A program made the position numbers and the translations under genes. From Rhizaria sp. SCN 62-66 (lineage: Eukaryota): 64,000 nucleotides of DNA. Positions 22,801 to 54,000 of this stretch are shown one piece after another (within the stretch, counting starts at the first letter, position 1; each line of letters starts with the position of its first letter). Location: NCBI GenBank assembly GCA_001724265.1, contig MEDY01000019.1, positions 1 through 64,000 of the forward strand, written 5' to 3'. Below the pieces are notes generated by a model, which searched no databases, was not told the origin of the DNA, and was given only the letters and a program-made list of their open reading frames with translations.

Positions 22801-25800
22801 GTGATCATAAGCCTATCCGTGTTCGCAAGATAAAGCCGTGTGAATGTGAAAGCAGCGTAGTGGCCCGCAGTGACAGGCGCAGCCATCGAAGTGCTCGGAG
22901 AGAGCGAGGTGGACGACTGAACCATGTGTTGCACCGAGCCAGCGGCCGGGAGCGCAAGCTGGCTAAACGCAGGGCGCTTGTAAATAATGCCGTCTACAGT
23001 TGCCTGAACCTCCACGCAGCGGCCCGGAATAGCGGCCATATTGCGGGCGCCGGTGGCCGAGAGGTCTAGCACCACGCCGTGAATGCGGAAACGGAGAAAC
23101 TTGTTCGGAGTGAGGCACGGATTGGTAGCGCACCTGAACTGGATCGAGGTCGTGAGTGGAGTTTTAACCGTCCACTGAGCGATTAGCGCATCCTCATCGT
23201 CCTCCAAGGCGGCGATCGAAACAAGCGAAGGGGAAGGATTCGTGGAGAATGTCACTGCGCTTTGGCAATAGTCAGTGAGCTGAATAAGGAAATTGGCGAC
23301 ACTAGTCGAATAATCATAGCGAGGAATGACCAGCACATCCATGGTGCTGTTGAACTGTTTCGAGCTCGTCATCTCATGGCCCAGCAGATCTACGGAGACG
23401 TCGAAGATGTCGTCTTGCACGGTAGCGGCAGCATTATCGCCGTTCATATTCACAGGATCCGTCGTTCCAGTCCAGGCCGCAACCTTCGTGTTCGAAGTCG
23501 TGGTGAACGAAAAACACGACGCCGCGATGTCGCGCGAGTCGCTGGGGCCGAACGAGGCCGTGGCAAGCGCGGGCACGGTGAACTCGAGGTACGGCGTCAC
23601 AGGCACCGTGGCGGTATCACTGTACATCACCGCAGTCGGGTCCGGCGACGGGAACATAAAGCTGGTAACAGCCATAACCCACGTCGTCGAAGTGCCTGTA
23701 GGAATGACATTGTTGCCCGTGATGGTGTTGGTGCCGGCCAGCGAAGACAAGGTGTTAAACCGCAGCGCGCACGTCTTGCTGAGAGTGACTGTAAGCCCGG
23801 TGAAGGCGTAGGGCGCGTGGTAGTACATGCGCCAGCGCAAGTCCGCGCTCGAGGTCACACCGTCCCATGAGCTCTGCATCACAGTGTTAACAGCGACGGC
23901 AAGGATGTCCATCTTGTTCACAGAATGCGTGGCGAGAATACCGGTCGTGCGCGGCGACGGCAAGCTGTCAAGTAGGATAAACCCGTTGGCAAAGCGCGGC
24001 CACACGGAGCCGTACGGCGTGGCAGGGCCGGAGAAGCGGACGCGCATCGGTGTGTTCGCCTGGGAGCCTGTCGGCAGCACGGGCTGCGGGCACACGAGGC
24101 TGATCATTGCCTCGTCAGTCGTCGAATTGGTGCACGTCCAGTCTGTGGAAAGCGGCAGCAGCGTGAGCGACTCAAGAAAGTACCCAGGTACGTTCATCGT
24201 GTCAAACGAGACTAGGGGTCGCACTTCAACATTGCTGAGATACGATGTAGTTAAAGCAAAGATCTGCAGCTCAAACGTATGAATCTCTGTGAATTGATCA
24301 GGGGTAGAGCTCGTCGGCAATGCGGAAAGAAGCGTCTTGGAAATGTGGAGCGGCAGGAACTGGTAGTCAATGTGCGAACTCGCCAAGTAGGTGAATTGAG
24401 AAAGCGGTTCCTTCAGTGTCGAAGTGTCCCCGCCACCATCGACTGTAAAGCACTCCTGAGGGATTGTGGGGTAGAACGACGGAATTCCGTATAAGACACG
24501 GAATACATTCAGCATCGTCAGGATATGCGTCGAACTAGCACTGAGCGCAGCAGAAGCAGTGCATGTGACGCTCATCTGTGATGCTGTCACTACCGGTGCA
24601 GATGTCGTGCAGTCAAGTGAACTCCCGTTCGTCGAATTGCTCGAAATGGTCTCATTCGCCGACCCCACCGACAGAGAAGACAAGAACTCGACCGCCCCAG
24701 CCGGACACAGTGTGGTGTTAGTGCTGTTGTACGTTATCAAAAACGTCGTATTTCCGCTAATGTCCACTTTTGTGTGTGTTGATATGGCCATGTCAGCGCG
24801 CTTAACCGTCACCCAGGGACTGGCGGCCTCCGTGTCGGTGCCGTCCCAGCTGCCGTCAATAGCCTTGGACTTAATGCGCATCAGCAGGTCGTTGCCGCCA
24901 GTAATTAGCACATTTTTGAGCGGATTGTTCGAGAGCAAGTTGTAGTTGGACAATGTCGTCACAAAACATTTCGGGAGAATAGAGGGCGCAAACTTGATCA
25001 TCCGAAACATGGTCGGAATATTGATCCAGAACACCTTGTGGTTCAGTCCGGAGCCGGGGTGCGGGCACTTGATCACGCGACGCCCGTCAGCGGTGAAATC
25101 GACGTCGACGCAGCTGCTGGCCCCTGTCGAGCCCCAGCTCGAAGTCATCGGCCGCGTCGCAGTCGCAAGCAAGCCGTCCGTGAGATAAATATTACAAGGC
25201 GATTCCGTGCTGACCTTAATCGTAAAGTACACGTCTTCGCCGGCGGGGATCTCCTGCAGCAAGTATACCGTCATCTTGACGTTGTAGTAGAACTTAGGGT
25301 CGGAGCTGTAGAGATCGTCCATGGTCATAACGCGTTCGAGTGCAGTCAAGTCATATTCCATCGCGTTGCGCGTCTGTGCAAAGGTGAGCCGTGCAACCTC
25401 CGTGCTCAGGTACTACGTAGAGTCCTCTTGACTTGTGACATTAAGGCAAGCCGATGTCGCGGTCTTGGAGTTAAGAACAACACTGTTGCTGACAGTCACA
25501 TAGCGCTGCGGGATCTGGCCGAACTCAGACAGCGTGGGCATCGTATCAACTTCACAGCTGTTGATCGATATTTGCGAGCCATCGTAACCTGCAGGGACTG
25601 ACGCTAATGTACAAAGACTTGTGTTAGATAGCGCCGGCAATGTGAAAAGTGTGATTGCCGTCTCATTAGGGCAAAGGGATACTATGATCGTGCGTTTTTT
25701 CGTCGAAGACCCAGAACGATAGGCTGACAAGGTAAACTGCACTGTATACTTGATCGAGAACGTCTCCGTGGCCGTGGTCACTGTGTCCACGGAGGCGCTG

Positions 25801-28800
25801 TAAGCAGTTGGCAACACGTAGTACCGCATCGGCGTCAAGAGCTTGCCCGACGAAGGCGAATACACTTCCATCGGCACAACGTTCTCTGAAATAAAGATGA
25901 TTGAGCTGCCCGACTTAACATTAGCATATGCAGTGATGCACGATGCAGAAAGCAGACTCTGCACATTAAGCACCGAGTAATAAAGCTCAATAGCTGCGTC
26001 GTAAATTGGATACGGCCTGGTAGCGGATGTGAATAATGTGCTCGGACATGTGACCGTGGCGGTGTATCCGTCAGTCGAGATCACCGCCGAGCATGAAGTG
26101 GTCGGAGTATCGGTCGCGTTCGCGTTCCAGACGCCAACTCCTCTAAGGCCGCCGCAGCCGGGGACAATGGACCAAAGGAAGTCGACAGAGCTCGAGGCCG
26201 GGACTTTGCGGTAGATCTGGAACCTGATCAGGCCGCGCACAATAGTGCTTCCAGTCTCGTCGGTGTACGCGTACGTCATCAGCAGGGCGTGGTCAAACGT
26301 TCTCGATGTGGTCTCGGGAAGCGCAAGAGCCTCTAGAGTGTACGCTGTTGAGCCTAAAACAGAAACATTAAACATCGTCGTCGGCAGTGTAGAAGATGAA
26401 AAATTAGATACAGGCACGCGGAGCGAGTTGAACACAACGCCCGTAGGTGGAGGAAGGGTGTTAGTGCCCATTGTAAGCTTGATATTAATGACGGGAGATG
26501 ATGTTGAGGCGTTCTTGATTGTGTAAGCGGTGAGGCCACTCACCCAGTGGGCAACGTTGGCGACGGCGAGCGTGATATTAGAGCTGTCTGCGTTTTGCCA
26601 GACGGAAGAATTTGTTGGGAGCGTGATATTAGTGTCAACATCAACAGTTGTAAAGGTAACAAGACCGATTTGCAGCTGCATCTCGGCCGCTGATGTGTCA
26701 AAAGTGCGAAGTTTGTAGTCTACCACGGCAAACTTGAGTGTCGGCTTTACCGTTGAAGTCTGCGCCGTCATTGTGCGAGACGCGGTGGATGCGTTTGAGG
26801 TACCCCGGCTATAAAGGATGTAAAAACAACTCGCAATAGGTGGGTATGTCACACTGTAGGGATTTGCAAGAACATACGAGGTACTATTAAGGTAGGTCGT
26901 GCTTGTTATAGTGCTAGTAGAAGTGAATGCAATTTTTGTTGAGTCTGAAGAGCTAAAAGTCAACGCGGGGTTAGTCGTGTGCGTTGTAGACAATGTGGCC
27001 CATTGACTGCACTCATCATCGACGTATTGAGCAAAGCTCCGAGTGCCGCTACTACCCGCCGTGGCGAAGCCGACTTGAGAGACGTAACTTGTGATCTTAC
27101 TTTTCGTGGGATCACTATAGCTGAGAGATGTTGAGTCAAACGAAACAAGCTTCAAATTGACTTGTGATGTCGTCGTCTGTTCACGGCCATAAGCAAAATC
27201 TGCCGGAAACTGAATATACTCAGGTGGTATCGTAGTACCAGAAACAAATATAGTCTGAATACACATCGCTGACGCAGCGTTAATATAGCCGGACGTAAAA
27301 CTCGAAATAGACATGTTAAAATAAGGAGCTGTGGATGTTGCGGTGCTAGTGAGAGCAAATATACGTGCCGCTTTCTTGCCTACCGCTGATGTGAAACCAC
27401 TGACTGCAGCAGGAGTCATCGAAGAACCAAAGGGATCGCCGGGGGCACAGTGTGGCAAGGGCAAAAAGTGAATTTGTACGCTCGAAAGAGTGTTTGCGCT
27501 ACCCTTAGCGAAGGAAAATTTATATAATGTCGGTGCCGCCGTTGGAAGTGCCTCTTGTGTCAACGCGAACGAAGAATACTTGGTCGGCGTCCAGTCTGAC
27601 GCCATCGGCACAACATACGGAGCGTACGTGGTCAGCGAACTCGACTCCTCGAGCGTCCAGCACGACGCGGGGATTGACGCCGCCTCCGTCATGACATCTG
27701 TGATGCGCAGACGAGCCCAGCGGCCTGTGATTGCGTTTGTACATTTAATCAGAAAACGGACAGGCGTGAATGTGGACGAACTAAACCCGTCAGTGCGACT
27801 CCCGCCATCGTACGTGATCGAGCAAGAAAAAGTAGACACGTCGCTCGTCGTGTCATTTTTCACATATAGAAGATGTGCTGCATAGGGAACGGTCGAGCCA
27901 GTCGCATTAAGCGACTGCAAACATGTCGTTGAATCTGATTTAATCGTGAGAACACGGTTGAAGGAAGCTGAAGGACAGTAAATGTAGGCATCGACCCAGT
28001 ACGTGGAGCCGTAGAACTGCGTGTATGAAGTCGTCATGCGGAGCTCGGTGCTGGTGGGGGCAACATACGGGATTGTGCTCGCCGCGGGGACATTCGTGGA
28101 AGACAAAAGCACAGAGCTGCTTGCGCCAGTGAAGCTAATGGTGAAACACTGCTTAATATAGTTGCTTGATTGCGCATTTGCTTTGCTCAGGGCGATGTTG
28201 TCAAGAACAAGCACGGCGCCGCCGAGCGTCGGCTGCACCGCCGAGTCCACCAGCTCGAAGTTGATTTTAGTGCTTGTTCGAGTGCCACTAAGTTGCAGTC
28301 CAAATGTGGACAAGCTGGTGTCGATTGTCACGTCGGTGAGAACACTGCCGCTGCACGCAGTATTGACCTCGAGGGAGCCGCCAGTCACGGGGTACGGGTG
28401 CGTGAAGGTAAACTTGAGCGACATGGAAAACGTCAACGAACTGGAAATGATCGACTGGCGCGCGGTCGAGTCAAGCACGCGGTCGGTGGTGACCGAGGGC
28501 GCGGGGTTGTCCCAGGCGGGGACAGAGGAGAACGGCGTCGCGGGGGAGTTGACGATATCGCGCTCGTTGGCGAAGTTGGTGTAGGTGCTCACGCAAAGAC
28601 CGGCGGGGAGAGTGAACCCGCTGGCGAGGTCGGAGTAAATTGGGGACACGGCGAACATGTTCAGAACAAGGTTGATAACGAGTGAGCCAGTTAAAATAGT
28701 CGAACTGCTGGAGGACACGCCGAACTTGACTCCGGTGATCAAAGTGCCAGTGGGAGTCCCGGAGGCGACTGTGAGTGAAACGATCGCCGAGTGGTCGCAG

Positions 28801-29030
28801 ACGAGCGAGAATGACGATGTGTGAGAAGCGTCGGCGGTGGGAATCGTAAAAGCAGCGCGATCAAACTGAGCCTTAACTGACACCGTCTTCGCCGAGAGAC
28901 TGCGCGTTGGCGTGCCGGAGAACGAGACTGTGAAGGCTGTGTGATTGGTCGCGAAAACAACGCACGCCAGCGTCGCCAAGATCAGCAGCAGGGCGCTGAT
29001 CTTGGCGCGGAGGCGCAAAAAGAGTTGCAT
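1887..29030 (-). CDS. Giant (~9,047 aa) multi-pass cell-surface receptor/adhesion-like protein. Order: signal peptide, two arrays of Cys-containing beta-rich repeats, two beta-propeller-like regions, 8 sushi/CCP, Ca-binding EGF, IPT/TIG-like, CxxC Cys-rich repeats, ~9-TM C-terminal module. One in-frame TAG at 25413-25415
   Basis: ORFs 25413..29108 and 1887..25361 are in the same frame, separated by one TAG plus 17 sense codons (…GAC TCT ACG TAG TAC CTG AGC…). ATG at 29030 begins a signal peptide (MQLFLRLRAKISALLLILATLACVVFA); the downstream ORF has none. Ends TAA at 1887-1889. No introns are needed. Confidence 0.85.
2570..5575 (-). other. Multi-pass (~9 TM) C-terminal module, split by a ~640-aa hydrophilic insertion
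   Basis: Three hydrophobic helices at ~5575-5195 and six at ~3270-2570. The motif AFLYRGY…YYW…RK…RPF is typical of a widespread protist multi-TM family resembling the fungal Flc/Pkd2 'TRP' domain (by-eye recognition). Confidence 0.65.
5590..8160 (-). other. IPT/TIG-like repeats followed by CxxCxxG Cys-rich (ephrin-receptor/GCC2-GCC3-like) repeats
   Basis: TIG-like text (PTIDSIEGC…GGNVLVIRGHNFG…ATVTIGGISC…VRCHVPPGTG) is followed by CQACFPGEY, CTQCPSGTH, CESCPAGTYS, CILCPRGMFS, CAQCVPGTYA and a juxtamembrane LCTVCEPGY. Confidence 0.75.
8180..8292 (-). other. Calcium-binding EGF-like domain within the giant protein
   Basis: CIDVDEC…C…CINTFGSFVC matches the cbEGF pattern, although the final Cys pair is incomplete. 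Confidence 0.75.
8290..10055 (-). other. Eight tandem sushi/CCP domains within the giant protein
   Basis: Eight C…(Y/F/T)xCxxG(Y/F/T)…xC…W…C units, e.g. TYSCNTGY…CAWNGW…PIC and TYVCPSGY…RRCLSDGTW…VC. Boundaries approximate. Confidence 0.85.
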
Positions 29031-33771: not shown

Positions 33772-36457
33772 ATGGCCTCCAACACGCCCACCATCCGGGC
33801 GCCGCAGCACTCCGCGCCACTGCGGCCCCCGCCCAGCGCGGCCCTGCCGCAGCCGCAGGCCCCGCTGCCGCCCGCCCCGACAAACCGGCCGCCGCCGAAG
33901 CCGCTGTCGAACGACGCGTCGCCGCACTTTGCCAGTAGTGACCCCCACGCCGCAGCCCCGGCTCTGCCCGCTCTCTCTCTGCAAGCGCACCAGCAGTATC
34001 AGCAACAACAGCAACAGCAGCAGCTGCAGCAGCGCGTGACCGTCTCGCCCACCCCCGCCGCCGCCGCCGCCGCGCCCCCGTCGTCCTCGTCTTTTGCGGT
34101 CTATGCCCCGCATCAGCGCCAGCAGCCACAGCACAGCCCCACCGCATCCTCCTCGTCGTCGTCGACGTCATCCGCGGTGACCGTGGAGGAGCTGCGCGCC
34201 CGGTGCGACGACCTGGCCCGCAAGTTGGCCGAGAGCGAGCGCGAAAACCTCGCGCTGAAGCAGGAGGTGGAGACGCTGCGCGTTGAGCGCCGCATTGCCG
34301 ACGCCCTGTCGTCCAACAACGCGGGCAATACCATCCGCACGCCCTCGCGCAACGCGCCCACACTCAGAGGCACGCAGCGCCGCGCCAACATCGTCACCAG
34401 CCCGTCCGCCGCCGCCGCCGCTGCCGCTGCCGCCGCCGCCGCCGCCGCTGCCGCGGGCAACAGCGTGTACGCTGCGACCACCATCCGCGCCCCCGCGTCC
34501 GCTGCGCCCGGACTGCCTCCGGCGAGCGCGACCACGTTTGCGTTCGGCGGCAACACGATCCGCAAGCCCGCGCCCACGATCCCAGCCGGCGCCGGCAGCG
34601 CGGGCGCCGCGGCGACGGGGCCGGCGCACGCTGCCAAGAGCGCCTACTGCGGCGGCGGCGACGGCCCTGACCAGGACGACTGTCCGCCGCCGCCGCCGCC
34701 CGACGACGGCGTCCGCCACCACGGCGCGCCCAACAGCAACAACAGCAACGACGGCGCGACGATTCGCGGCGGGCTGGTGCCGCCGCCGCCCTCCGGGCCT
34801 GCGCCGCCAGTGCCGCCCGCGCCCATCGCCACACTGCCCCGCGGCAACAGCGCAAGCAGCGCCGGCGGCCCTGGCTACGGCACCGGCTCCACGGCGCACG
34901 CGCCGCAGTCGCTGCCGTTCGTATCGGCCGCGTCGCCCACGGCCGCGTCGGGCGCCACGGGGGCGGGGACGCCCCTGGGCACCCCGGCGTCGCCTGTCGC
35001 GCTGCCCGCGAGCTACGACTGGGACGACGCCGGAAGTGGCAACGGCTACGGCAGCGGCGGCAACATCTCCTCGGCGGCGCGCGCACGGCTGATCCAGACG
35101 ACCTTTGACCACTGGGCCGCGCAGGCGTGGATGCGCATCAACCGCAACTACGCCGCCGTGTCGCCCGACGTCTCGGACTTTTACCTGCTCGAAATCGCCG
35201 AAATCATCGACGTCGCGCGCGACGAAGAAGAGGCGCGCGCGCGGCTCGACGTCGCGCTCAGGGGCTTCACCACGAGCGCGTGGCGCCTCCTCCGCAAGAT
35301 CGGCAGCGGCGGCTTTGGCGCCGTCTACCTGGTACGCCATTTAAAGAATTTAGTATCGCTTTGTTGACTGCATTTACATTCATAATTGGTTTCACTAGTT
35401 GGATAGTGTCACCTATTATTGTACATGTATATATGTTATATTTGCTTTAAATCTAACTCACCTTGCAAAATATCAATCATTCTTCTTTGTTTTTCTCAAA
35501 ACTACAGGGTCTTTCTCGTGAGAACCCTAACCTGAACGTTGCGATCAAGGTTGTCTCGCTGGAGGACGCCGAGGACGACGTGGCGGTGATCCACCGCGAG
35601 ATCCAGGCGATGTCGATCAACGGCGTGGGCGGTGACCGCGGTCCGCAGCAGCTCATCAAGTACTACGGGTCCGAGATGCACGGCGCTAAGTTGTGGATCG
35701 TGATGGAGTATATCGACGGCGGGTCCTTCCTCGACGTGCTTAAATCGCTGCCCAACGGCCGGCTGCAGGAGCAGCACGCGGCGATCGTGGCTCGCGAGGT
35801 GCTGCTCGGTCTGCAGCACCTGAACCGCGAGGGACAGATCCACCGCGACATTAAGGCCGCCAACGTGCTCATCAAGACCGACGGCACGGTCAAGCTGGCC
35901 GACTTCGGCGCCTCGCGTACGCTGACCAACACCATGACCAAGTGCAACACCTTCGTCGGCTCGCCGTACTGGATGGCGCCCGAGGTGATGCTACAGAAGG
36001 ACTACGATCACCAGGTCGACGTATGGTCGCTCGGCATCACCGTCTACGAGCTGGTCGTGGGTAAGCCCCCGCTGGCTAACGTCAACCCCATGAGCGCGCT
36101 CACAGTACGTTCTCCTCCACTTATTGATGTTATATAGCGCCATATATCGCTGGAAATATTTGTTCTTGTTAAATTATTGAATTTGTATTCTCATATTCTC
36201 ATATTTCTTCTTTTGTCAACATCTTTTTTTTCCTCCTCTGCGCACAGTGCATTATCCGCGATCCGGCGCCGACGCTGTCGGGCCTGTCGGCGACTCACAG
36301 CCCGTACTCGCGCGACATCAACGACTTCATGTCGCGCTGTCTTGTCAAAGACCCCGCGGCGCGTGCCACCATCGCTGAGCTGCTTGACTCCAAGTTCATC
36401 CGGTCTGCGCGCAAATGCAGCGACCTCGCCGTGCTCGCCAAGAACCTCACCGTCTAA
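33772..36457 (+). CDS. STE20/GCK-type (MST3/STK24/25-like catalytic domain) Ser/Thr kinase with a long N-terminal Pro/Ala-rich extension (788 aa). Exons 33772-35331, 35508-36104, 36248-36457
   Basis: IGSGGFGAVY, VAIK, LWIVMEYIDGGS, IHRDIKAANVL, VKLADFG, NTFVGSPYWMAPEV, DVWSLGIT. Exon 3 (CIIRDPAPTL…DFMSRCLVKDPAARATIAELL…KFI) completes subdomain XI. Both introns are GTACG…CAG, phase 0. Stop TAA. Confidence 0.9.
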
Positions 36458-37918: not shown

Positions 37919-39451
37919 TTAATGAGTGTGCGCGTTGACAAAGCGCTCAAACTCGGGGCGCCACTCAGGCATTGTATGCAGGCCGAGATCGTTGAGGCGG
38001 GCGTTAATCACGCTCGCTGGTGCGGACGAGAGCAGCAGACGCGCGCGCTCACGGTCCACCTCGTTGAAGCGGGTGTGTGCCTCATCCTCATCGTCGTCGT
38101 CATCGTCGTCGTCCTCAGCGTCAGTCTCGTCACTGTCGTCATCATCGTCGTCGTCGTCCATCGAGATCGTCACTCCGTTGTCGGCAACGCGGGTGCTCGA
38201 GCGAGTCGCCGCGGGGGGCGCAGACGGTGTGACGATGCCGCCAGTCACGGCGGCGGCAACCGAGTCCGCGGCGCTGCGCGGGGCCGGCTCGGCGGTGATC
38301 GCGGGCACGCCGGCGGGGGCAGAGGCAGTGGGGTGAATGCGGGGCGGCGCCGGCACTGACGCGGGGGCATTGTTGCTGCTTTCATTACCCTCAGCCGCAG
38401 TAGCAGCAGTCTCGGATGCGGCGGCGAGTGTAGGCGGCTCAGGCTTGTTGCTGTCGCTGTCGGTGCTTGTGTGAGTTGTTGCGGTCTCAGCTTCTGACTC
38501 AGTCTCGACCGCGAACGCGCGCACAGAGCGGCCGCGAGCGTTGCCGTTACCGCTACTGCGAGCAGCAGCGGGGGGCGGCGCGTTGCCGCGGGGGCCAGAG
38601 TACTCAGTCCACTGAATAAACCCGTCGCGGTTGGCGTCATCCTGCTCAAGCAGCTGCTGCGCGACGCGCGCCAGCTCGTTCGCAGGCACGCCCTTGTTGC
38701 GCAGCCACACGGTCAGCTCCTGCTTGGACAGCTTGGCGTCGCGGTTCGTGTCGATCTCGGCGAACAAGTTCGGCGGAGTTGCGGTGCTGACAAGGTCGAG
38801 CGTAATCTCGAGGGTGGCGCCGGGGGGAATGCCAAGGTTGTTTGTGTTGGCGTTGTTATTGTTGGTCGCCTCACCGAACCCCCACTCAGGAGGAACTGTC
38901 AGCCGGCGCTGCTCGCCAACGCACATGCCGATGACGCCGTAAGACCAGCCGGGAATAGTGTCATCGCTGCCGGCAATAAGGCGCATGGGCGAATCACGGG
39001 CCGAGGAGTCGACAACACGGCCGCGCTGACCAGCGGCGGATGTCGGAGCAATGCGGACTCTGTATGAGACAGTGGCCAGGTCGCCTAGAGCCACCTTGCC
39101 AGAGCTAAGTACAGGTTCAATAGAACAAATCAATAAAAGATTGCCAAGCAGTTCGCTAAACGATACGTTTTTTTAAGTTGATTAGAGGATGCCAACGCGG
39201 TACTTCAAAGATATTGCAATTATAAAGAGAGTGGAAGCAAGCGCTCACGCTAGATTGCATAGAGCAGACAATTATCGCCTGAGTACGTACCCGCAGTTAC
39301 CCTGACGAAGAGTCTCGCTCTTAAAGCCGCTAGGAGGGCGGATGTCCTCAAAGGGCACAGGAGCAGAATGATGCGTAGAGGTTGCAGAGATGGCGAGAAC
39401 GCAGAAGGCGCAGACGCAAATCGTCGCCAATAGTAGCTTCCCGAAAAGCAT
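37919..39451 (-). CDS. Secretory FKBP-type PPIase-like protein with EF-hand pair (FKBP7/14-like) and a long acidic/low-complexity tail (448 aa). Exons 39451-39291 and 39104-37919
   Basis: Signal peptide; IPGWSYGVIGMCVGEQRRLTVPPEWGFG; EF-hands NLFAEIDTNRDAKLSKQEL and DDANRDGFIQWTEY. Phase-2 intron GTACGT…TAG. Stop TAA. Confidence 0.88.
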
Positions 39452-41063: not shown

Positions 41064-44000
41064 TTACGCGTCTGCAGGCGGGGGAATCGGTAGCGCAGAC
41101 CCAGTGGCCGTCGCCGCAGCTGAGAACGACACCGAGCCACTCTTCCTCACACTGGGGGTCCCGAGACTTCCAGTCGCACCGGCAGTCGCGCCCATGCGCG
41201 CGCCTGCACCTGTAGCAGAAGTCGCAGCGGCGTCGCCGTGTTCGAGCTCGCTGAGGCCGAGAGCGCGGAGCGAGTGGAAGTCGTCCTCCCTGAAGTGCGC
41301 AATCCGCACAAGTGCAGAGAGCTGCTCTGCGTCGTAGCCAACCGCGCCGACGCGCAGCTCCAGCGGCATCTTGACCTTGCCGCGGGACTTGCCCTTCCCG
41401 ACCTTGCGCAGCACCAGCAGCGGCAGCGCTGCGTCGGCCTTGGCGGCCATCATGAGCGTCAACACGTCGGCCTTGCGCTTGACGTTGCGCTCGCAGATGT
41501 TCAGGATGCGGTCGCCCTTGACAAGCCCGCACTCAGCCGCGGGGGAGTTCTCCGCCACTGCGCGCACCACTGCGTTCTTCTTGGCCTTGGTAAACTCGAC
41601 GCCAATCACGGGGTCCAGCTCGGCCACCTTGGCGCGCGCGCGCTCGGCGACGGCGAAGCGCCGCGCGTGGCCCACCAGCTCCTGCGAACGCCACTGCATG
41701 AGCTCCTCGAGCCGCACCTGGAACGCGGCGATTTCGCGCTCTGCGCGCACGGCGCGGTCCTGCACGCGCCCGTTGGCCTCCTCCGCGGCGGCCAGCTGCC
41801 ACTGGAGCTGCGCGACGAGCTGCGACGCGTGCTTGTTCTCATCGTCGAGTCGCTGCACCGTCGTCTCGCGCGCCGCGTGCTGCGCCGCAACCTCGCCGCA
41901 CGACGCGTGCGCGGCCACGGCGGTCGAAAGCTCCTGCCGCACGCGGCCCAGCTCGCTCTCGGCGGCCTCGGCACGCGCCCGCGCCTCGCCGCTGGCGCGC
42001 TTCTCGGCCGCAAGCTCGGCCTTAAGCAGCTCCACCAGCTGCAGCGCGCCCGCGGCCTCGTTCGCGGTGGGCGCCAGCGTCTCATTTTCGCCCGCGAGCA
42101 TCTTGTGTTCGCGCCAGAGCCCTTCCAGGTCGCCGCGCGTCGCGACGGCCTTCTCACGCCACTCCCAGGCCTCCTTCTCCGCGCGCGCGCACTCGGCCCG
42201 CGCGCCATCCGCGGCGGCCTCCGCGCGCGCCGCGGCCTCGCGCTCGCGGTCCACGTCCCCGCGCAGCGCCACAGCCACGCGCTCGAGCCGCTCGCACTCG
42301 GCCTCGAGCGCCGAGACCGTCTGCGCCGTCGCGGCCAGCTCGCCCCCCGCCGCCGTGAGCGCGGAATGGTGCAGGAGCTCCAGCCGCGCCAGGCGCGCCG
42401 CGCTGGCCGCCACGGCCGTCTTGGTGTTGAGCGGGCAGTTGATGCCAACGGGCGCGCCCGTGGCGGCCGCCAGCGCGCTCAGGCGCGCGGGCCCCGCGGA
42501 GGTGCGCGAGAGTGCCGTCGCCGCCGCCACGGGGTCCGTGGTCTCGGTCAAACTGACCGCCAGCACCTTCTTAGCGCTCGCGCCGTTGCTGTTGTCGGCG
42601 ACGGCTGCAAGCACAGTGCTTGTGGTAGCGTTCGCGTTGGCGTAGGCGGCAGTGTTGGCGAACGCGTTGTTGTGAGCCTTGGCAGCCTGCTCAGCGCGCG
42701 TGATGGCTTCGTCGAGCTCGCGGACGGCGGCCTGCGTGGCCTCGATGCCGTCAATGCCGCGCAGCTGCTGCTGCAGCAAGAGAGCCGACAGCGACCGCTG
42801 CGTGTGGCCCAGGCGGCGGCCCAGCGCGGCGTGCTCCTCGAGCGAGCGCTGGTAGCGCAGCTTGAACGTCTCCAACTCGTCGACGCGCTGCGACAGCGCG
42901 CGCCGCTCGGCGTCGCTAGCGTGCAGCCGCTGCAGCAGCACCGAGTGCGCCGCGGCGTCAACGTCGACGAAGGAGCCGCCGTCCAGGCGCACCGTCTGCG
43001 AGCCCGCGCCGCCGGCCCCAGCGGCCGCGGAGATGGCCGTCATCGTGTGGCTGCGGCTACTGCCGACGCCGGTGCCGGTGCCGGCGCTCGTGCCAGGGCG
43101 GCGCAGCGACGCGAGCAGGCCCGCGTTGGGGCCGCTGAGCGCCGTGGCCGTCGTCGCGGGAAGCGCGGGAGCCGGCAGGAACACGCCTCCGGTCTCGCTG
43201 GCGGCCGCGAAAGAGGAAAACCCTCCCGTGGCCGTCGCGTTGCGCGCGGACAGCGCCCCGTGCGCGCCGCCGTTGTAGGGCGCGGCGGCGGCGACTGCAG
43301 CGCGCGCCGACGAGGCCAGGCCCTCGGTAAAGCTGGCGTCAAAGCGGCGGCCATGTCCGAGCGTCAGCTGCAGCTGCTGCTGCTGCTCGCGGTCGCCCTT
43401 GATCAGCCGCGCAGATGCCTGGCGGTACACCCCGGAGGTCATCAGCGGGGCAGGGCCGAAGCCGCCGCTCGCGCCCGCGCCAGCGCCAGCGCCCGCCCCC
43501 GGCACGTAGCTGTTACCGCTGCCGTTGTTGTTCGCGCCAGAGCCGGCGAGCGTGACGGGATGCGCGGCGGTGGAGCGACCAAGTCCAGCGCCCGCGGCCG
43601 CGGCCGTCGCGGCGGCGGCGGCGGCGACGCGCGCCGAGGTCGGCACAATCACGCGGCCCGCGGACAAGCCCGCGGCGACCGACGCCGCGGCAGACGGGTT
43701 GCTCAGGTGCGGCGGCACGCCGGTAGCGACGAAACCGGCGTTGTTGTTGTTATTGTTATTCGCGGCGGCGGCGGCGGCGGCGGCGGCCTTGGCGATGCCG
43801 GCGGCGGAGGGCGCGATGAGGTAGCCGCCACGCTTGCCGGCGTTGCCGTTCACGCCCAAGCTCACTGCGCCCGCGTCCCCCCCGTCTCTGCTCGGAGCGC
43901 TGGCGCTGGCCGTGTTACTGACGCGCGCCGAGAGCGTGGCCGGATGGGGGTCGGTGACCGAGGGCGGCAGCGCGTGGGTCAGCGACAACGGCCGCGGGTG

Positions 44001-45629
44001 CGTCGAGTGCACCACCAACGCCTCCGTTGCAACCGCGGCGGGACCCACGTGTGTACCCCCATGTGTTCCGGCATGAGTGCCGGGGCGGGAGGGCGACAGG
44101 GGCGTGGCGCGGCCGTATCCAGCCGCCGTCGCGCTGCCGCTGCCGCTGTTATTGTTGTTGTTGCTGTTGTTGTTGCCGGTAGGGTTGAAGCGGTTCGCAA
44201 GCAGCGCGCGCGCCGAGGCCGGTAGCTGTCCCGTCGCCGTCGCCGCTGCAGTCGCCGCCGCAGCATCGTCGCCGCCCTGAGCGGGGTTTTCATACGTGAT
44301 CACAGTACCCTGACCGTGTCCCTGACCGTGGCCGTGGCCAGCGGAGTAACCGCGGGCACTCACGCCTGACGGCGCCTGCGACTGGGACTGCGCCGACTGC
44401 GGCGGCGGTGTCCCGTTGCCGCCAGCGCCGCCGCCGAGCAGCGTGGGCGGCCGGTAGGGCTGCGAATGCACGCCCCGCGTCCGCGGGTCCTCGTACGGCG
44501 ACGCGTACGGACGGAACCCGGCGTGGCCGTGGCCGTGGCCGTGGCCTTGCTGCTGCTGCTGCTGCTGCTGCTGGGGGTGACCGTCACTCGCACTGCCGTT
44601 GGCGTTGTTGCTGTTGTTGCTGTTGTTGTTGTGAGCGTAGAGCTGCAAGAGCTCGCCACCAGTCGCACTCACGCTGAACCCACTCCCACTCCCAGCAGCA
44701 GCAGCAGCAGCAGCAACGCTACTGTCGCTGAAGCTCCCGGTGCCGTTCACCCCGTCAGCGCCGTAAGCGGCAGCAGCGTTGGGGTGCACGGTAGGGACCT
44801 TGCATGCGGCCGCGCGCGACGAGGCCGTGGGTTGCGCGTACGAGGGCGGGGGGCCGCTCGACACCGGCAGCGGCGGCCGCGGGGACGGCTTGATCGCAAA
44901 CGGCACGCTCGACGCCGCGCCAGAGCCGCTAGCGCCGCTGCTGACGCCGCTGCTGTTGTTCGTGTTGCCGTGAGATGCGGAGTCGCGCGACGTCGGCCCC
45001 TCGCCAGGGGGCTGTGCCGACGAGGGCTGCGGCTGTGGATGTGGCTTGCGGGCGCGCGCGCCGGTCGCGGGCGAGCCGTTGCGCGACGACGAAGAAGAAG
45101 GCTTGGAGCTCGCCGTCGCCGTCGCCGTCGTCACCGCGTGTGCGTCGCCGACGCCCGCAGTGGCGGTCACTGCGGCGGCGGCCGAGTCAGAGAGCGAGTC
45201 GGCGGTCGTCACAGCGGCAGACGCGGACGCGGGGGCGGGCAAGGCGCTGTTGTGCTTGCGCGTGGCGCGGCGCGCGCTGCCAACGCCAGTCCCGCCCTGC
45301 GCGTGCGAATTAGCGCCGGAGCCGGGATGGGTATCGGGCGACGAGGGGCGCTTGTCGCCCTCGGCCGCGGCGGCCGAGGGCGCAGCGTGGGGCCCGCGGG
45401 AAATGGACGTGGGGTGGTTGAGTCCACCGCTAGTCCGGCGGGCCTTTTTGCGTTCTTTGGCAGCCGTGGTGAGCTGCTGGTTCATGCTTTCGCGGCCCTG
45501 GGCGAGCATTTGCTTATACAGCAGCTCCATCTTCTCCTTCGTCATCGGGGCAGAGGCCGCGGGGGCCGCGGCCGCGGCTGGCTCCGCGGACAAGGAAGGG
45601 TCCGGGAGGGCTGCGGTGGCGTCGGCCAT
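41064..45629 (-). CDS. Large low-complexity/coiled-coil protein with a C-terminal PDZ domain (1,521 aa)
   Basis: Uninterrupted ORF from ATG 45629. Ala/Ser/Gly/Asn/Gln-rich N-terminus, heptad-rich E/A/R/L region (~42950-41620), and PDZ-like VIGVEF…VVRAVAENSPAAECGLVKGDRILNI. Stop TAA. Confidence 0.8.
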   Translation of the reverse strand: MADATAALPDPSLSAEPAAAAAPAASAPMTKEKMELLYKQMLAQGRESMNQQLTTAAKERKKARRTSGGLNHPTSISRGPHAAPSAAAAEGDKRPSSPDTHPGSGANSHAQGGTGVGSARRATRKHNSALPAPASASAAVTTADSLSDSAAAAVTATAGVGDAHAVTTATATASSKPSSSSSRNGSPATGARARKPHPQPQPSSAQPPGEGPTSRDSASHGNTNNSSGVSSGASGSGAASSVPFAIKPSPRPPLPVSSGPPPSYAQPTASSRAAACKVPTVHPNAAAAYGADGVNGTGSFSDSSVAAAAAAAGSGSGFSVSATGGELLQLYAHNNNSNNSNNANGSASDGHPQQQQQQQQQGHGHGHGHAGFRPYASPYEDPRTRGVHSQPYRPPTLLGGGAGGNGTPPPQSAQSQSQAPSGVSARGYSAGHGHGQGHGQGTVITYENPAQGGDDAAAATAAATATGQLPASARALLANRFNPTGNNNSNNNNNSGSGSATAAGYGRATPLSPSRPGTHAGTHGGTHVGPAAVATEALVVHSTHPRPLSLTHALPPSVTDPHPATLSARVSNTASASAPSRDGGDAGAVSLGVNGNAGKRGGYLIAPSAAGIAKAAAAAAAAANNNNNNNAGFVATGVPPHLSNPSAAASVAAGLSAGRVIVPTSARVAAAAAATAAAAGAGLGRSTAAHPVTLAGSGANNNGSGNSYVPGAGAGAGAGASGGFGPAPLMTSGVYRQASARLIKGDREQQQQLQLTLGHGRRFDASFTEGLASSARAAVAAAAPYNGGAHGALSARNATATGGFSSFAAASETGGVFLPAPALPATTATALSGPNAGLLASLRRPGTSAGTGTGVGSSRSHTMTAISAAAGAGGAGSQTVRLDGGSFVDVDAAAHSVLLQRLHASDAERRALSQRVDELETFKLRYQRSLEEHAALGRRLGHTQRSLSALLLQQQLRGIDGIEATQAAVRELDEAITRAEQAAKAHNNAFANTAAYANANATTSTVLAAVADNSNGASAKKVLAVSLTETTDPVAAATALSRTSAGPARLSALAAATGAPVGINCPLNTKTAVAASAARLARLELLHHSALTAAGGELAATAQTVSALEAECERLERVAVALRGDVDREREAAARAEAAADGARAECARAEKEAWEWREKAVATRGDLEGLWREHKMLAGENETLAPTANEAAGALQLVELLKAELAAEKRASGEARARAEAAESELGRVRQELSTAVAAHASCGEVAAQHAARETTVQRLDDENKHASQLVAQLQWQLAAAEEANGRVQDRAVRAEREIAAFQVRLEELMQWRSQELVGHARRFAVAERARAKVAELDPVIGVEFTKAKKNAVVRAVAENSPAAECGLVKGDRILNICERNVKRKADVLTLMMAAKADAALPLLVLRKVGKGKSRGKVKMPLELRVGAVGYDAEQLSALVRIAHFREDDFHSLRALGLSELEHGDAAATSATGAGARMGATAGATGSLGTPSVRKSGSVSFSAAATATGSALPIPPPADA

Positions 45630-45981
45630 GGGGAGCGCAGCAGAGGCTGGCGAGGGGAGAGCCGCGCGGGGAAAGAGGGGACGGCTGAAGTGGGTCGGGA
45701 CAGACGGAGAGTGGAAAAGCGTTTCTAAAGAAAAGAAAGGGCTGTGTGAAAATGGCAGAGCTTGCAAAATATGAGCAGAATAATTATGGTGTTGTAAATT
45801 GAGGCAAATTGGTTTTGTGTCTGTTAACGGATGTCTGACGTCAATATACCTATAAATAAGACTAGCCGTTACAGCCTCCTGAGGGTCGCCGAGCGGAAGC
45901 ACTGGGGCGGGAAGAGCAGCGCACTAATCCAGATATGTCGACGGCAAAACGTTTGTCAAACAAAGTTGTTTCACGGCCGCC
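45630..45981. promoter_or_regulatory. Short divergent intergenic region (putative bidirectional promoter) between the PDZ gene and the TRIC-like gene
   Basis: Head-to-head start codons only 352 nt apart, with an AT-rich core. Inferred from layout only. Confidence 0.45.
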
Positions 45982-47412: not shown

Positions 47413-48043
47413 GATTTTGTTATTCGGCGTTTTGTTTATGGAAGAGTACGTGGCGACGGGAGCGATTCGCGCGTGAAATACATAGTTTGGCTTGATTAAT
47501 GTGCGCTTATGAGCGACATAACCGTGACTGCGTTTTCTCGTGCTCTCTGATGACTTTTGATCAAGAATGAAAAGGATATGGAACGCTGAAACGAAAACGC
47601 CTTGTTTGTTTTTTTTAAAAATATATTGGAATCCGTTTTAAGCAAGGAAAAAAATGTGGCATAAATATTTCTTTGAGTTTGGAGTCAATTTTTTTTCAGA
47701 GTCTATATTTAAAATTTCTCCCTCGGTACTCATTTTTTCAAGATATTTCCTGCGTTTTCTCATGTTATACACAACCAAAGGGAATAATACAAACAATACC
47801 AACATTTAAAGTTTTTTTTGTAGCTGATTATAGCAATTTTATTCCAGAAAATTCATACGAGATGCGTCAAACCCGAGAATAGTGGTTTGCCACGAAGAAG
47901 GCAAGCTGAGGGCGCCTCTGAGCGTGATCATTTCAGTTGTCGGAATCTCTTTCTATTGACCGTCTTTGCTTCTATCTGTCAGACACAAGACTAAACTCAT
48001 TTATTTTTGTACTCAATTTAAATTATAGACTTCAAATAGTACA

Positions 48044-51000
48044 ATGGAGGCTTCTGCCGCGCCTACAAGGCGCGGGGGCAGCCACTAGTCTGCGTCGGTC
48101 CTCTACTCCCACCCTGGCTCTAGCATAGTCGCTCTCTTACGCGAGCTTGAGCTATCTCTTGGCCTTAACCGCCCACAACACGCTGTATCCCACCAGCGCA
48201 CCGCGCCCACACCTGCGTCCACGCTGATCGGCCCTCTCCCAGCGCCGGTGCAAGTCTCGCGCCCTCTCCTGTCAGTCGCCACATCCGCTGCTTCCGCTGC
48301 TGCTGCTACCTCAACTGGCGCTGCCCCGTCCTCCGCGAGCATCAACGCACCCGTCCGCAGCTACGCGCGCCGCCCGCGCCGCACTGCAGCGGCCCTCAGC
48401 GCTGGTTCCGGCTCAAACACTGCAAGCCTGTCGCAGTCGCAGTCTCACCAGTCTCACCGGTCTCACCAGTCTCATCACTCTCATCACTCTCATCACTCTC
48501 ATCAGTCGCTCCTGTCACAGTCGCAGTCTCTGTCTATGATGGACACGTCTCGCGTGCGCTTCCTTCTTGCCCCGCGCCGCCTACCGACGCACGTGTTTGA
48601 GCTCTTGCTGAACTCGCTGCCCCGCTGGCACGCGCGCGCGCCGCCGGACTCCCCGTCCGTGTTGCGGTCACGGCTCGCCGCGCTGTGCTTCGCGCTGCGC
48701 CGCGTGGGTCACGGCGCGCGCGCGGACGCCGTGGAACACGTGGTGCACATGCTCCTCGGCCAGCAGCGGCAGCAGCAGCTGGCGCAGCAGCGTGCTCCTT
48801 TTGGCGCAGCAGAGGGGAAAACAGGGCTGTATGCGATCGTCCCAGTCGCAGGTGCTTCTGCAGCCTCTGCTTCAGCTTTAGCCTCAGGTGCAAGTGTACT
48901 TCCAGCATTACCGGTGTACATTGCGCCTTTGCAGTTGTACAACACCGATATCAATGCCAACTACGCGCACTCTGCTTCTGCTGTTACTGCAACTCGAAGT
49001 ATTAACGGAAGCAGCACCAGTCGTGTGCAGGCTCTCGGCGTCCGCGTCTCGCACCCTTACACAGCCAATCCCCTTACATCGTTGCAGTACATTAATAATA
49101 ACATTAACAACAACTCTGACAACAGCAGTCATCACAGTCGCTCAGCCTCAGCCTCAGCCTCAGCCTCAGCCTCAGCCTCAGCCTCGGCCTCTTCGAATGC
49201 CCCGCCCGCAGCGTTCGTGTGCTCTCTCACCAAGGTCTCGTCCGTACTTGCTCTGCTGCTCGAGCTCGCCGGCTCCGGCTCCGACACTGCGTCGCCCGCG
49301 GCCCTTGCCACGCCCGCACTCGGTAGCAACGACGTCAACGGCGCAAACGTCATCTCTCATGCTAGCGTTGCGAGTACTGCGCTGCTGGGGCCATTAGACT
49401 CGCGCTTAGCCGCGCTGGGCGGCGGCGTCGACAGCTGCGGCGTCGTGACTGTGCCCCGGTCAACGTACCGCGTCAACGCCGGTGTTGGCGATGTCAATGG
49501 CGCGGGCGCTGTGGTTAGCGCTGGCGTCATGAGTGCGAGTGCGGGGTTGAGCGAGCGACTGGCGACGTTTCCGCAGCATCTCGTCATTTCGCGTGCGCTG
49601 CTCACCGCTGCAGCCTCGAGCTACGCGTATAGCAGTCGCTGCAACACGGACAGTCGCAGCGACGAAAGCCGCTACGCACACATTGAAGCGTCTTTTGCTG
49701 CAAACAAAAATGCAAACTCGTTCTCTGCTGCTCACAGCTCCATTATCGCATCTGTTGACGCATACGCTGGCTTTGATGACAACATGAGTCCTCGTAGCTC
49801 CGATGACTGTGCGGCGGTGCCACCATTGCACCCCGCCTTTGGAGTGCTTACACTCGACGGCCTACTTGACGACTACGATTCAAGCACTGCTAGTGGTAGA
49901 AACAACTACGCCGCGACATCGCGGCTTAACTTACACGATCACACGCGGCCTAACTTAGCGCCCCCAATCGCGCCCCTGACGGCCCTGCCCCTGCTGCCCG
50001 CCGCGCTGGACGACAGCGACATCCGTGCAATCATGGCGCAACAAGACGCCACTGCTGCTACTGGAGCAGCTGCTGCTGCTGCTGCTGCTCGAGGTTACTC
50101 CGCTGATAGCGCTCGTAGCCCCCACAGTACTGGCGGCGGAGGCGGGCTGAAGCAATTTGACTGGGGATCCTTGGACACACCCATTGATGTGGACGTTGAC
50201 GTTGGTATTGACTTTGCTGGCGCTAAAATCAACACACAGGCGCAGTCGCATTTCCAGCCGCACTCGCAATCCCAGCTCCACCCAGAGCCTCAATACCAGT
50301 CACGGCGTGCTGGCGCGCCCATCTGCACTCTGTCGTTCACCGAGTGCGTCCGGCAGTCCGCCACACAGTGCGCCACGCAGTCCGCTAGACCGTGCGTTAC
50401 GCAGTGCGCTGCACAGTGCGTTGCACAGTGCGCTCAGCACCCGTGGCGCGGCGCGGTCGAGGGCCGCCGCGATCGCTGCGCCGTCGCGGCCGCAGTGGCG
50501 GCGCTGATGCCCGCGTGGGAGCGCGCGTACGGTGCCGGCGCAGTTATCACTGGTGACGTTGGCGATAGCGATGAGGAGACAGCGCTGTTGCGCGCTGATG
50601 ATACCGCGCCCCGTGCTATCACTCAAGAAAGCAGCTGTAACGGCAACGGTCGCAGCAACGACGTTCTTGCGCTCACATTTGATGACCCACAGGCTCGCGC
50701 GCGTCGAGTCGGAGTGACTGTGGGCAATGAAGTGATCGTGGGCAGCGCAGCGCCCGTGGGCGTGCGCGGTGGCTGCCCGTGGGGCTGGGCCCTCGCCGCG
50801 GCGCTCGCTGGCGCGCCGACGCCCGGGTTTGTCACCACTGCGCCGTGCTCGATCCACTCACAATCGCAGTTGCCATCGCCGTTGCAGCAGCAGCCACAGT
50901 GCGCGTGCTCTTTGTTCCGCATCGCGCCCGCATTCACTACCACAACCTCTCTCTGGGGCCTCTCACACACTGACTCTGGCGTCAGCTCCGGCGCTGCTGT

Positions 51001-54000
51001 GCCGCCGCAAGTCACCACCGTGCTCGCTGCGGCCACGGTCCTTGCGGCCGTTGCCAAGTGGGCAGACGCCGTCGCGACTGCTGACGTCACGTTCTTACTC
51101 TCCCAGCCGCAATCGCGATCACAGTCGCCAACAAATGCGTTGGCGGGCGGCGGCTTCACTTTCGACCGCGCGGCCCCCACCGGCCCGGTCTCCCGCGCCT
51201 TCGCCACCGAGCTGCTGTCTCTCATCTCGGACCTGCGTCTGCGCGCGCGGTTCGTCGCCGCCGCGCTCTCGCCCGCGGCGTCGGTTGTCGTCGCCGCACG
51301 CGCCTTTGCCCCGCTCGTGGCGCAGGTGCAGGGCATAGCGCGGCTATGCTCGAGGACGCCGCACTCTCTGGCTCACGCGCTGTTGTTTGCAGACACGACG
51401 GCTGCTGCCGACCCCGTGTTCGTCATTACCGTTCCGTCTTACAGTGTGGATAGCAGTGCAATGGGCGGCGCGTTGACCGTGGTGCGGACGTGCGCCGGCC
51501 CGGTCGCGTTCCCCTCGGGCCCCGCGCTGTTGTCGCTGCTCTACACCGCGACGGCGACGAGCACGGCTCCTGGGGGCGGCGCCGGCGGCGGCGTGACCAT
51601 TAGCGCGGGGATACAGGCCGCAGCCGCTGCGACCGAGGACGAGAATAACAACGAGGAGAGTGCTTTTGGCGCTGTGGTTGCTGGTGTTACTGCCGATACT
51701 ACAATTGGCGGGCTAAGTGACTCGCCTCTGAGGCCGACGCGGGCGCAGGCGTTGTCGAGCGTGGCTGTGAGTCAGCTTCTCTTTGCTACAAAGGGCAGTC
51801 GTGATGACACTGTTGGCAATGCGAACGACGATGGTGTTGCGAATGAGAACAATGCTTCCATGTTGTTGCCTTTTTCATCACAGCAAAGCTCTAGTTCTCT
51901 GAGTAACAGCACTGACACTGGCGCGAGTGTTGGCACCGATAATGCGCTTTCGTCTGTTTCGCCGCTGCGGCGTCTCTTTGCGGCCGCCGCCGCTCCCTAT
52001 TTTGAGTCTCTTACAGCCCGCGTTAGTACACCGGACTTCAGCTTTTATCATATCAGCGCCAACAACAAGAGTAACGGCACGAGTAGTAAAGCCAAACGCA
52101 AGAGCAAGAACACGAAGCTTTCGCAGCCGCAGTCAGAGCTGCAGTTGCACTCTGAGTCGCTGGGCTCTCTGCCGTGCTTTCTCTCTCGTTCCGACGCGAC
52201 GCTGATCGCCACGGCGGGCGCCACGCTCGCCATGCTGCGGGCCGTGTCGCCCGCTCACGCCGCGCTCTGCGCTGCGCCGGCATTAGCTCACAAGATTAAC
52301 GACAACAACGAAATTCAGAGCAATGCTCTGACTTATCTGCGCTCAGGCGGCGCCTTATCTTCCCCGCATCCAGGCGGATTAACTTCCGCATGGGCGGCCC
52401 TTGCAGCGCTCTCGGAGGCCTCCGCCGCCCGCCGCGCGCGCGCCCTCGCTGTCATCTCGCACTGGCGGCTTCGCGAAGCCACGCGACGCCTGCACGCGCA
52501 CCACGCCGCGTCCGCGCTTGCCGCGTCCGCGCGCGCCTCGGCCGGCGTCGCGCGGCGCGAGACCGCGCGCGCTGCCGCGGTGGAGCTCGGCCGCGAGCGC
52601 GCGGCGCGCGCGGCGGCGGCGGCGGCGGCGCGGGCTGCTGAGGCGGCCGAGACCGAGGCGCGGGTGGGCGAGCAGCGGCGCGCGGCGGCGGCGGCGGCGG
52701 CGGCGCTGCTGCTGGAGCACGCGCGCGTGATGGGGCAGGAGCAGCGGCGGCAGGAGCGGCTGCTGTGGCGGCTGCGGCGCGCGCAGGCCGCCAAGGAGCG
52801 GGAGCTGCTCTGGCGCGGCGTGGCGCAGCTCGAGGCGCGAGAGCTGGCTGAGTACAGTGCTAATAACGTGAACACCAATGCCAGCCCTAAGAACAACAAC
52901 TCTATCAGTTTCAGTCGTAACGTTGCAGTCTCTGGCGCTGTCTTGACTCCCACTGTCGCTACTGCTTCTGCTGATTCTGTTGCTGTTGACATTGACGCCA
53001 AGACTGATGATGATGAGGCCAAGGCTGATGTTGCTGAGCCTGAGGCTGTTGTTGATGCGCCATCTATCGACACGAGCAGCAGCCACTCTGTTTCTCCGAC
53101 TAGCAGCAGTAGCAGCAGCGTAGCCGTGTTGCTCGCGAGTAGTCAAAGTGACGCGAGCGAACACAAGTCTGACTCTGAAAACGACAAAAACGCACCTGAG
53201 ACCAAGGACAACGATGATACAAGTGTGTCTGCTGACGACGTTGACAAGACTGAAACGAGTCAGTCTGCTGTCGCAGCATTGCCATCAACATCAGAATTCA
53301 CAGTTATTCCGACTGGCGACGCGGTTACAGTCACGGATGCGTCAATCGTCACGCCTGCGTTTGTGGCGCCTGGCGAAGAAATCGATTATCAACACTACTT
53401 GGCGCTAAAGGCCGCAGAGGCGTCAACAGGAACAACAGCGTCTGATAACGCCGCGCCAAGCTCTGGTCTTGCCCCGGGGTCGCGGTGGGCTGCTGGCGTT
53501 TCTCACGGTCGCTAGGATGCAGCCAACGATGCCGAGGTTGACGCGGATGTTGACACTGACACTGCCGTGACTTTGGCCACCGGCACTAGTTCGAACTCCA
53601 ATGTTGACGGCGTTGCTGTCGTCTCCACCCCGAGCGATGAGGACGAGTTCCGTGCGTACTTAGCCCTCAAAGCTCGCGAACACGAACTTACGAACGCTGT
53701 TCGAGACGTCAATGATTGCGCTTATCGTGTTGTTGCTAATAGCACGTACACCGTCGTCTCTGCGCCCACAGCGGCGCGCGCGCTGTGCGCCGCCGCCCCC
53801 GCGCGCGCCGCCCTCGTCTCCGCGCTGCTGCCGCCGCTGCTGTCCCGCGCGACCCTGGTCCACGCCGCGGCGGCCGACGCGCTGCGCACGCGGCTGCGCG
53901 TGCAGGACCACCTGGCGCTTCTGCAGCGCACGTTCCTGCTGCTCGACCCCTGCTTCGCCGACTCGCTGCTGCCACCGCTGGTGCATACGCTGCTCACTGC

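Follow-up and report, generated by a model that had tools for sequence, protein, structure and literature searches.

In-frame TAG codons in two very long genes mark an uncultured wastewater eukaryote as a candidate for UAG-only reassignment

Does the organism behind contig MEDY01000019.1 (Rhizaria sp. SCN 62-66, GenBank assembly GCA_001724265.1) translate UAG instead of stopping at it? The question is raised by positions 1 to 64,000 of this contig (the window), in which two very long genes are interrupted by TAG codons: a giant gene on the minus strand (site 1) and a gamma-tubulin complex component (GCP)-like gene on the plus strand (sites 2 and 3). An initial annotation, made from the letters alone, had proposed global decoding of UAG at low usage. 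This proposal is still the best reading of the locus, because the in-frame TAGs are real and none of the 12 gene ends is a TAG, although it is not proven. Based on this one 64-kb window, we regard it as probable, if by a modest measure, that this genome uses UAG throughout as a sense codon, though very rarely, and stops translation at UAA and UGA.

The three TAGs were re-read directly in the sequence and lie, in frame, at the coordinates given in the initial annotation. In its own frame, site 1 follows 1240 open codons and precedes 7841 more, and the corresponding numbers at site 3 are 1808 and 1177. A screen of all six frames of the window for stops that have 300 or more open codons on each side found these two sites and no others. 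The codon-usage signal, scored with a model trained on part of the giant open reading frame (ORF), is unbroken and confined to a single frame through both sites. At site 1, the score is 39.4 bits for the 150 codons before the TAG and 57.0 bits for the 150 codons after it; at site 3, the two values are 17.2 and 44.8 bits. The other two frames have negative scores and contain 2–13 stops. Per codon, the score is higher after the TAG than before it in the giant gene (0.413 vs. 0.325 bits) as well as in the GCP-like gene (0.248 vs. 0.157 bits). Both long frames are otherwise open, with no further stop or frame break.

Reading the TAG of site 1 as sense fuses the ORFs 25413..29030 and 1887..25361 into one protein of 9047 amino acids. 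It comprises an N-terminal signal-peptide-like segment, four Sushi domains, TIG, Ephrin_rec_like and DUF7630 domains, and a TRP-like multi-pass membrane region at the C-terminus. The four Sushi domains, TIG, Ephrin_rec_like and the membrane region are all located downstream of site 1, where the first ATG is found 17 codons on. A hydrophobic N-terminus is available only from the start at 29030 (maximum 12-residue Kyte–Doolittle mean of 3.1, as compared to 0.7 for the ATG at 25361). The downstream extracellular-type domains would presumably need an upstream signal peptide and, since the signal-peptide-like start is present only upstream of site 1, the downstream part would not stand alone. In the public protein collection, the giant gene is split into proteins of 1205/1231 and 7824 amino acids, because standard-code gene callers cut it at the TAG. 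Homology searches around site 1 recovered the window's own products: a search for relatives returned only its 7824-aa protein, and HMMER with 1001 aa around the site against 1.84 billion representative proteins returned only its 1205-aa piece. A scan of metagenome contigs yielded a single contig of 1316 bp, which ends short of site 1. Within the giant protein, the internal repeats resemble one another too little to be aligned at the TAG (best non-self E-value, 0.029), and an AlphaFold2 model of 321 aa around the site, calculated without an alignment, was unusable (mean pLDDT, 32.7).

In the GCP-like gene, the first ATG past site 3 is found at 54239, 242 codons on, and the match to the Pfam family GCP_C_terminal starts 112 codons earlier than this ATG. 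A protein begun at 54239 retains the match only from profile position 42, with 42.4 bits, which is 5 bits less and leaves the initial 40 profile positions unmatched. As both the coding signal and the domain match precede that ATG, the part after site 3 cannot stand alone. On the upstream side, a GCP6_N match (profile positions 39–69 at residues 43–82 of the ORF starting at 48536) would fit one GCP6-like gene spanning the TAG of site 3, but the match is weak and below the cut-off (E-value, 0.039). No match to Pfam GCP_N_terminal (GRIP1) was obtained upstream of site 3, even at E-values up to 10. A search for relatives around site 3, for which the query is of low complexity, gave no match, and a sequence search of the PDB with the 3001-aa protein gave 0 matches.

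Of the initial annotation's statement that three TAGs lie inside two otherwise intact genes, the part concerning sites 1 and 3 is solid, whereas site 2 is ambiguous. After site 2, 149 open codons lead to the next ATG (48536), and this segment scores only 9.1 bits and lacks periodicity of GC at third codon positions (GC3). Given that the TAG is codon 15, that the coding signal is weak up to 48536, and that the GCP6_N match lies near the 48536 start, site 2 may merely be the stop of a 14-codon upstream ORF, and the protein may begin near 48536. There is nonetheless good support for each of the large ORFs being one gene, the translation of which has to continue through a TAG. The main weight of the case is biological: two or three nonsense codons are the only flaws in ORFs as long as 9047 and 3001 codons, and the parts downstream of them contain the recognizable domains and a coding signal that has not decayed.

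The conflict would disappear if the transcript were altered before translation, either by RNA editing (e.g., A-to-I, yielding UGG) or by removal of very short in-frame introns, but we consider this very unlikely. The TAG sites are not intron-like, because the GC content around them (0.52–0.71, with 0.52 at site 1) is above that of the three measured introns of 142–186 nt (0.29–0.39), and because no GTACG donor was seen at any of the three. The proven or inferred introns of the window are all 142–186 nt long, AT-rich and start with GTACG. Visual inspection around site 1 turned up a single GT..AG pair, which is 43 nt long and would break the frame if removed, and none of the listed splice joints lies over site 2 or site 3. 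The listed RNA contigs (runs X5 and X7) come nearest to these two sites at 48244–48557 and 53217–53487; none covers a TAG, and we treat them as neutral evidence.

Independent sequence data bear on whether the TAGs exist in the organism at all. The comparison of contigs covered one 20-kb stretch that includes sites 2 and 3, with site 1 outside it; runs X6, X8 and X9, which have small shares, were left out. Run X3, from another study, has a contig over 47330–49127 that shows the same TAG at site 2, and run X4, from a third study, has one over 53102–53746 that shows the same TAG at site 3; both contigs have 0 differing letters. Among the letters listed, no alternative was found at either site in 4/4 runs. 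At site 1, the gene calls P0002 and P0131 stop exactly at ...QEDST and are found on 3 + 3 contig records (ENA and Logan assemblies). Base errors, which the initial annotation had named as an alternative, are thus largely excluded, since sites 2 and 3 read the same in contigs from other studies and site 1 recurs in the gene calls. The window is derived from a metagenome assembly and its depth in the compared runs is low (~5–7×), yet with letter-identical contigs at two sites and the same end on all six records at the third, an assembly error, a base-calling error or a chimeric contig appears extremely improbable. As a separate observation, the data of other studies contain strain variation within the GCP-like gene: an in-frame GCG insertion behind 52743 (X4) and an A>G change at 48517, codon position 3 in the long frame, which is present both in the DNA run X4 and in the RNA run X5 of the same study.

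Gene ends in the window were re-derived with independent gene models, and the tally of the initial annotation (9 TAA, 3 TGA and 0 TAG) was reproduced. Its statement on internal stops held as well: there are 0 in-frame TAA or TGA codons, and no frame break, in 16,058 confident codons. UAG is therefore absent from the bona fide gene ends of the window (12/12 are TAA or TGA), which, in a sample of this size, amounts to weak to moderate evidence. The probability of 0/12 TAG ends falls from 0.28 to 0.014 as the assumed share of TAG among stops rises from 10% to 30%. Within the genes, TAG is used 2–3 times per ~16,000 codons (~0.2 per 1000), and the in-frame TAGs so far are located in poorly conserved linkers of very long genes.

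Such a very low usage, restricted to non-conserved linkers of very long genes, would also suit a standard code in which UAG terminates elsewhere and these few TAGs are leaky, being passed by near-cognate tRNA readthrough (basal or programmed) or tolerated as slightly deleterious premature stops; the full-length proteins would then come from only some of the ribosomes. The two long genes contain ~75% of the confident codons and are therefore the largest mutational targets. Moreover, the 123 nt from the TAG of site 2 on fold better than shuffled sequences (z = −2.37; 4/200 as good). UAG followed by CARYYA is a leaky-stop motif; a check at all three sites bore out the initial annotation in that none of them matches it (0/3), the +4 base being T, T and G. 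The fold scores at sites 1 and 3 (z = 0.28 and −0.06) give no downstream structure shared among the sites. Since neither a leaky context nor a shared downstream structure was found, readthrough is not favored. In addition, extensions of 7841 and 1177 codons that carry functional domains would demand efficient readthrough, and TAG stands at 0/12 gene ends. We consider leaky TAGs under the standard code unlikely, while giving them real weight.

Several observations weigh against sense decoding of UAG. The evidence consists of two solid TAGs and one ambiguous TAG in 2 of the 12 genes, with 0 at a conserved alignable position, and TAG is about 10-fold less frequent than the rarest ordinary codons counted (TTA with 34 and CTA with 47 of 16,058). 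If the genome prefers TAA and seldom ends genes with TAG in any case, the 0/12 tally has little force. The 64-kb window yielded 0 tRNA genes with ARAGORN and 0 matches with Rfam, and eRF1 is not among its genes. The argument of the initial annotation that all three codons are TAG proved to be overstated: with the codon usage of the window, 60–64% of one-step nonsense substitutions lead to TAG, random nonsense would give TAG in 3/3 cases with a probability of 0.22–0.26, and the TAG-only pattern therefore discriminates poorly. Lastly, the contigs of other studies hardly differ from the window and may represent the same clone, sharing any mutation.

The last two points speak for genuine nonsense mutations, i.e., null or truncating alleles or young pseudogenes, which are either fixed in one clone or heterozygous with the other allele lost in assembly. 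The contigs of other studies differ from the window by 0–1 letters over 0.6–2.7 kb, possibly as members of one widespread clone, so that a fixed mutation is compatible with them, and contig assemblies drop rare variants. On the other hand, three independent hits would be needed without a single frameshift, TAA or TGA in the 16,058 codons, and the coding signal beyond the TAGs equals or exceeds that before them. No alternative base is listed at sites 2 and 3 in the four runs, the same end at site 1 is found on 6 contig records, and TAG is again missing from all 12 gene ends. We therefore judge nonsense alleles to be an improbable explanation.

If UAG is indeed a sense codon in this organism, it would be translated as an amino acid, most likely via a cognate tRNA with the anticodon CUA, and eRF1 would recognize it poorly or no longer, with genes terminated by UAA (9/12) and UGA (3/12). 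From the pattern within the window we infer both genome-wide decoding and a dedicated tRNA. The Gln proposed in the initial annotation lost its footing, as there is only the resemblance of SH*S to SHQS behind it, at site 2, which is possibly non-coding; Gln or Leu may be the encoded residue, as suggested by precedent only. Rare UAG codons in the linkers of very long genes would represent an early stage of stop-codon capture. The much lower usage of UAG than in known reassigned organisms likewise points to an early or minimal stage. We propose tentatively, as a possibility that falls well short of probable, that UAG has only just been captured by a eukaryote outside the known UAG-only lineages (exLh, Iotanema spirale and phyllopharyngean ciliates), being gone from the gene ends while still about 10-fold rarer than ordinary codons. 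The coordinates of the features discussed are collected in Table 1.

Table 1. Coordinates of the in-frame TAG codons, the genes that contain them and related features of the window.
Feature	Position	Strand	Description
Site 1, in-frame TAG	25413..25415	−	ACG-TAG-TAC; codon 1206 of the 9047-codon ORF
Site 2, in-frame TAG	48086..48088	+	CAC-TAG-TCT; codon 15 of the long ORF or stop of a 14-codon upstream ORF
Site 3, in-frame TAG	53513..53515	+	CGC-TAG-GAT; codon 1824 of the 3001-codon ORF
Giant intronless gene	1887..29030	−	9047 codons with TAG read through; ends with TAA
Gamma-tubulin complex component-like gene (GCP6-like, rich in low complexity)	48044..57049	+	3001 aa with TAG read through; ends with TGA
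Best stretch of the Pfam GCP_C_terminal match	53903..54769	+	Residues 130–418 after site 3; profile 2–136; E-value 2e-12; 47.6 bits
Control intron, FKBP–EF-hand gene	39105..39290	−	GT..AG, 186 nt, GC 0.39; spliced out in X7 contig (joint 39104/39291, depth 61.5, side 163)

The window is eukaryotic, as several of its genes (those for the MeaB-type protein, a STE20-like kinase, a leucine-rich repeat protein and the FKBP+EF-hand protein) need GT..AG introns starting with GTACG. Its coding sequence is GC-rich (GC3 of 0.71 in the largest ORF), while spacers and introns are AT-rich. With such GC-rich coding sequence, introns of 142–186 nt and a source contig that is 220,695 bases long, the window does not look like ciliate DNA. 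Sequencing runs that contain at least half of the words of 47900–57100 are spread over three studies (P1, P2 and P3) and are labeled as bioreactor or wastewater metagenomes or, in the case of X4, have no organism label; an activated-sludge polyA metatranscriptome contains 31% of these words. Each of the four runs that were compared with the window gave long pieces with 0–1 letters different. The source of the window is an uncultured eukaryote found in metagenomes of wastewater and bioreactors.

The genes of the window include those for a MeaB-type (methylmalonyl-CoA mutase-associated) GTPase, a Cu/Zn superoxide dismutase (SOD) and an FKBP+EF-hand protein. The closest relatives of the MeaB-type GTPase are metagenome proteins with identities of 82–84% and 57–61%, as compared to at most 49% for the nearest named eukaryotes. 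Relatives outside the window (P0004, P0005, P0125, P0007, P0009 and P0128) are found on public metagenome contigs, the longest of which has 337,423 bases, and an uncultured clade around the organism of the window therefore exists in public data. P0005 and P0125 (contig of 24,896 bases) are in the 82–84% group, and P0128 (on the longest contig), P0007 and P0009 (contigs of ~36 kb) in the 57–61% group. A scan of genome contigs with P0005, which is 82% identical, yielded 80 loci that are bacterial throughout and at most 59% identical, and a scan of viral contigs with P0125 gave no match. The nearest Atlas clusters, which are coarse or sub-threshold and to be taken as leads only, are those of Ctenophora (0.85), Cnidaria (0.78) and Porifera (0.76). 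The window also encodes metazoan-type domains, namely Sushi, TIG, Ephrin_rec_like and FKBP+EF-hand. This domain repertoire and the sub-threshold Atlas neighbors hint, as leads, at an opisthokont or holozoan affinity.

All of the identified splice donors (35337, 36106, 39290 on the minus strand, 59802, 60069 and 60852) start with GTACG(T/C), an unusually rigid extended 5′ splice site. The introns, AT-rich and 142–186 nt long, are absent from the three longest genes (27, 9 and 4.6 kb), and short genes contain one to three of them. Five other TAGs were considered as further in-frame cases and rejected: those at 36135, 59844, 60657 and 61071 lie inside AT-rich GTACG..AG introns, and that at 45924 is part of an AT-rich upstream region. 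Similarly, the TGA at 35365 was rejected as a gene end, since it lies inside a kinase intron. The region 33772–36457 (+) constitutes one gene, composed of the ORF 33772–35367 and the kinase exons 35511–36105 and 36248–36457; its product has a long low-complexity N-terminal region followed by the STE20-like kinase, and an intron separates the glycine loop from the VAIK lysine. Two tandem paralogues, 37919–39453 (−) and 40039–40638 (−), encode an FKBP domain followed by EF-hands, and the spliced X7 contig of the former has a depth of 61.5, far over that of the neighboring genes in X7. Antisense ORFs of 390–435 codons facing GC-rich genes (41338–42645 (+), 44466–45728 (+) and 34168–35340 (−)) score low for coding, and base composition is their most likely origin.

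The precedents named in the initial annotation are correct, and UAG-only reassignment uncoupled from UAA is documented for few eukaryotic lineages (PMC5304391; PMC11687900). With its real and unusual in-frame TAGs, the window is a new candidate for this rare code variant; the anatomy of the genes and the recurrence of the TAGs in separate assemblies speak for it. If sense decoding of UAG is true, it would add a further independent case, in a recurrent uncultured member of the wastewater community, and a data point on stop-codon capture. The very low usage combined with absence from gene ends would be especially informative, because it resembles an intermediate stage that is predicted by theory and rarely observed; if UAG has in fact only just been captured, the organism would show, in nature, what reassignment looks like in its early phase. 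From a practical point of view, standard-code gene callers split the genes of this organism at TAG. A literature search in the context of activated-sludge metagenomes found no relevant description of a eukaryote from wastewater that has a non-standard code.

Among known systems, programmed readthrough of the UAG-CARYYA type resembles the window in having one in-frame UAG between two coding parts of a gene. Unlike such cases, the window has no leaky context or shared structure, and the extensions of 1177–7841 codons contain the main functional domains. In the ambiguous codes of Condylostoma, Parduczia and Blastocrithidia nonstop (10.1101/2022.04.12.488043; PMC12153298), a stop is read as sense within genes, as in the window, but the same codon is reported to end genes there as well, in contrast to TAG at 0/12 ends here. 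In the fornicate Iotanema spirale (PMC5304391), UAG is reported to encode Gln with UAA as the main stop, and the window shares with it the decoupling of UAG from UAA and the use of UAA as the primary terminator; Iotanema spirale is an anaerobic metamonad, whereas the window encodes a MeaB-type GTPase and a Cu/Zn SOD and has GC-rich genes. In phyllopharyngean ciliates, UAG is reported to encode Leu or Gln, arising in three independent events with suppressor tRNAs (McGowan et al. 2024, PMC11687900). As in the window, the change affects UAG only, was detected in uncultivated taxa from metagenome data and goes along with UAA as the preferred stop (PMC11687900), but sense UAG is widespread in these ciliates (PMC11687900), which tells against such a reading of the window.

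The same objection arises from exLh, a rhizarian of the Sainouroidea in which UAG is reported to encode Leu, while UAA and UGA still terminate translation (Panek et al. 2017, PMC5304391). In exLh, 384 in-frame UAG codons are distributed over 71 genes, and Leu is the aligned residue at 82 of 86 hyperconserved positions (PMC5304391), whereas the window has 2–3 in ~16,000 codons, none of them at a conserved position that can be aligned. In other respects exLh is like the window. It is a non-ciliate protist known from contaminating or environmental sequence, UAG is the only stop codon found in frame, and its genes end with 56 UAA, 15 UGA and 0 UAG (PMC5304391), so that in both, termination is by UAA and UGA with UAA dominant (56/15 in exLh and 9/3 in the window).

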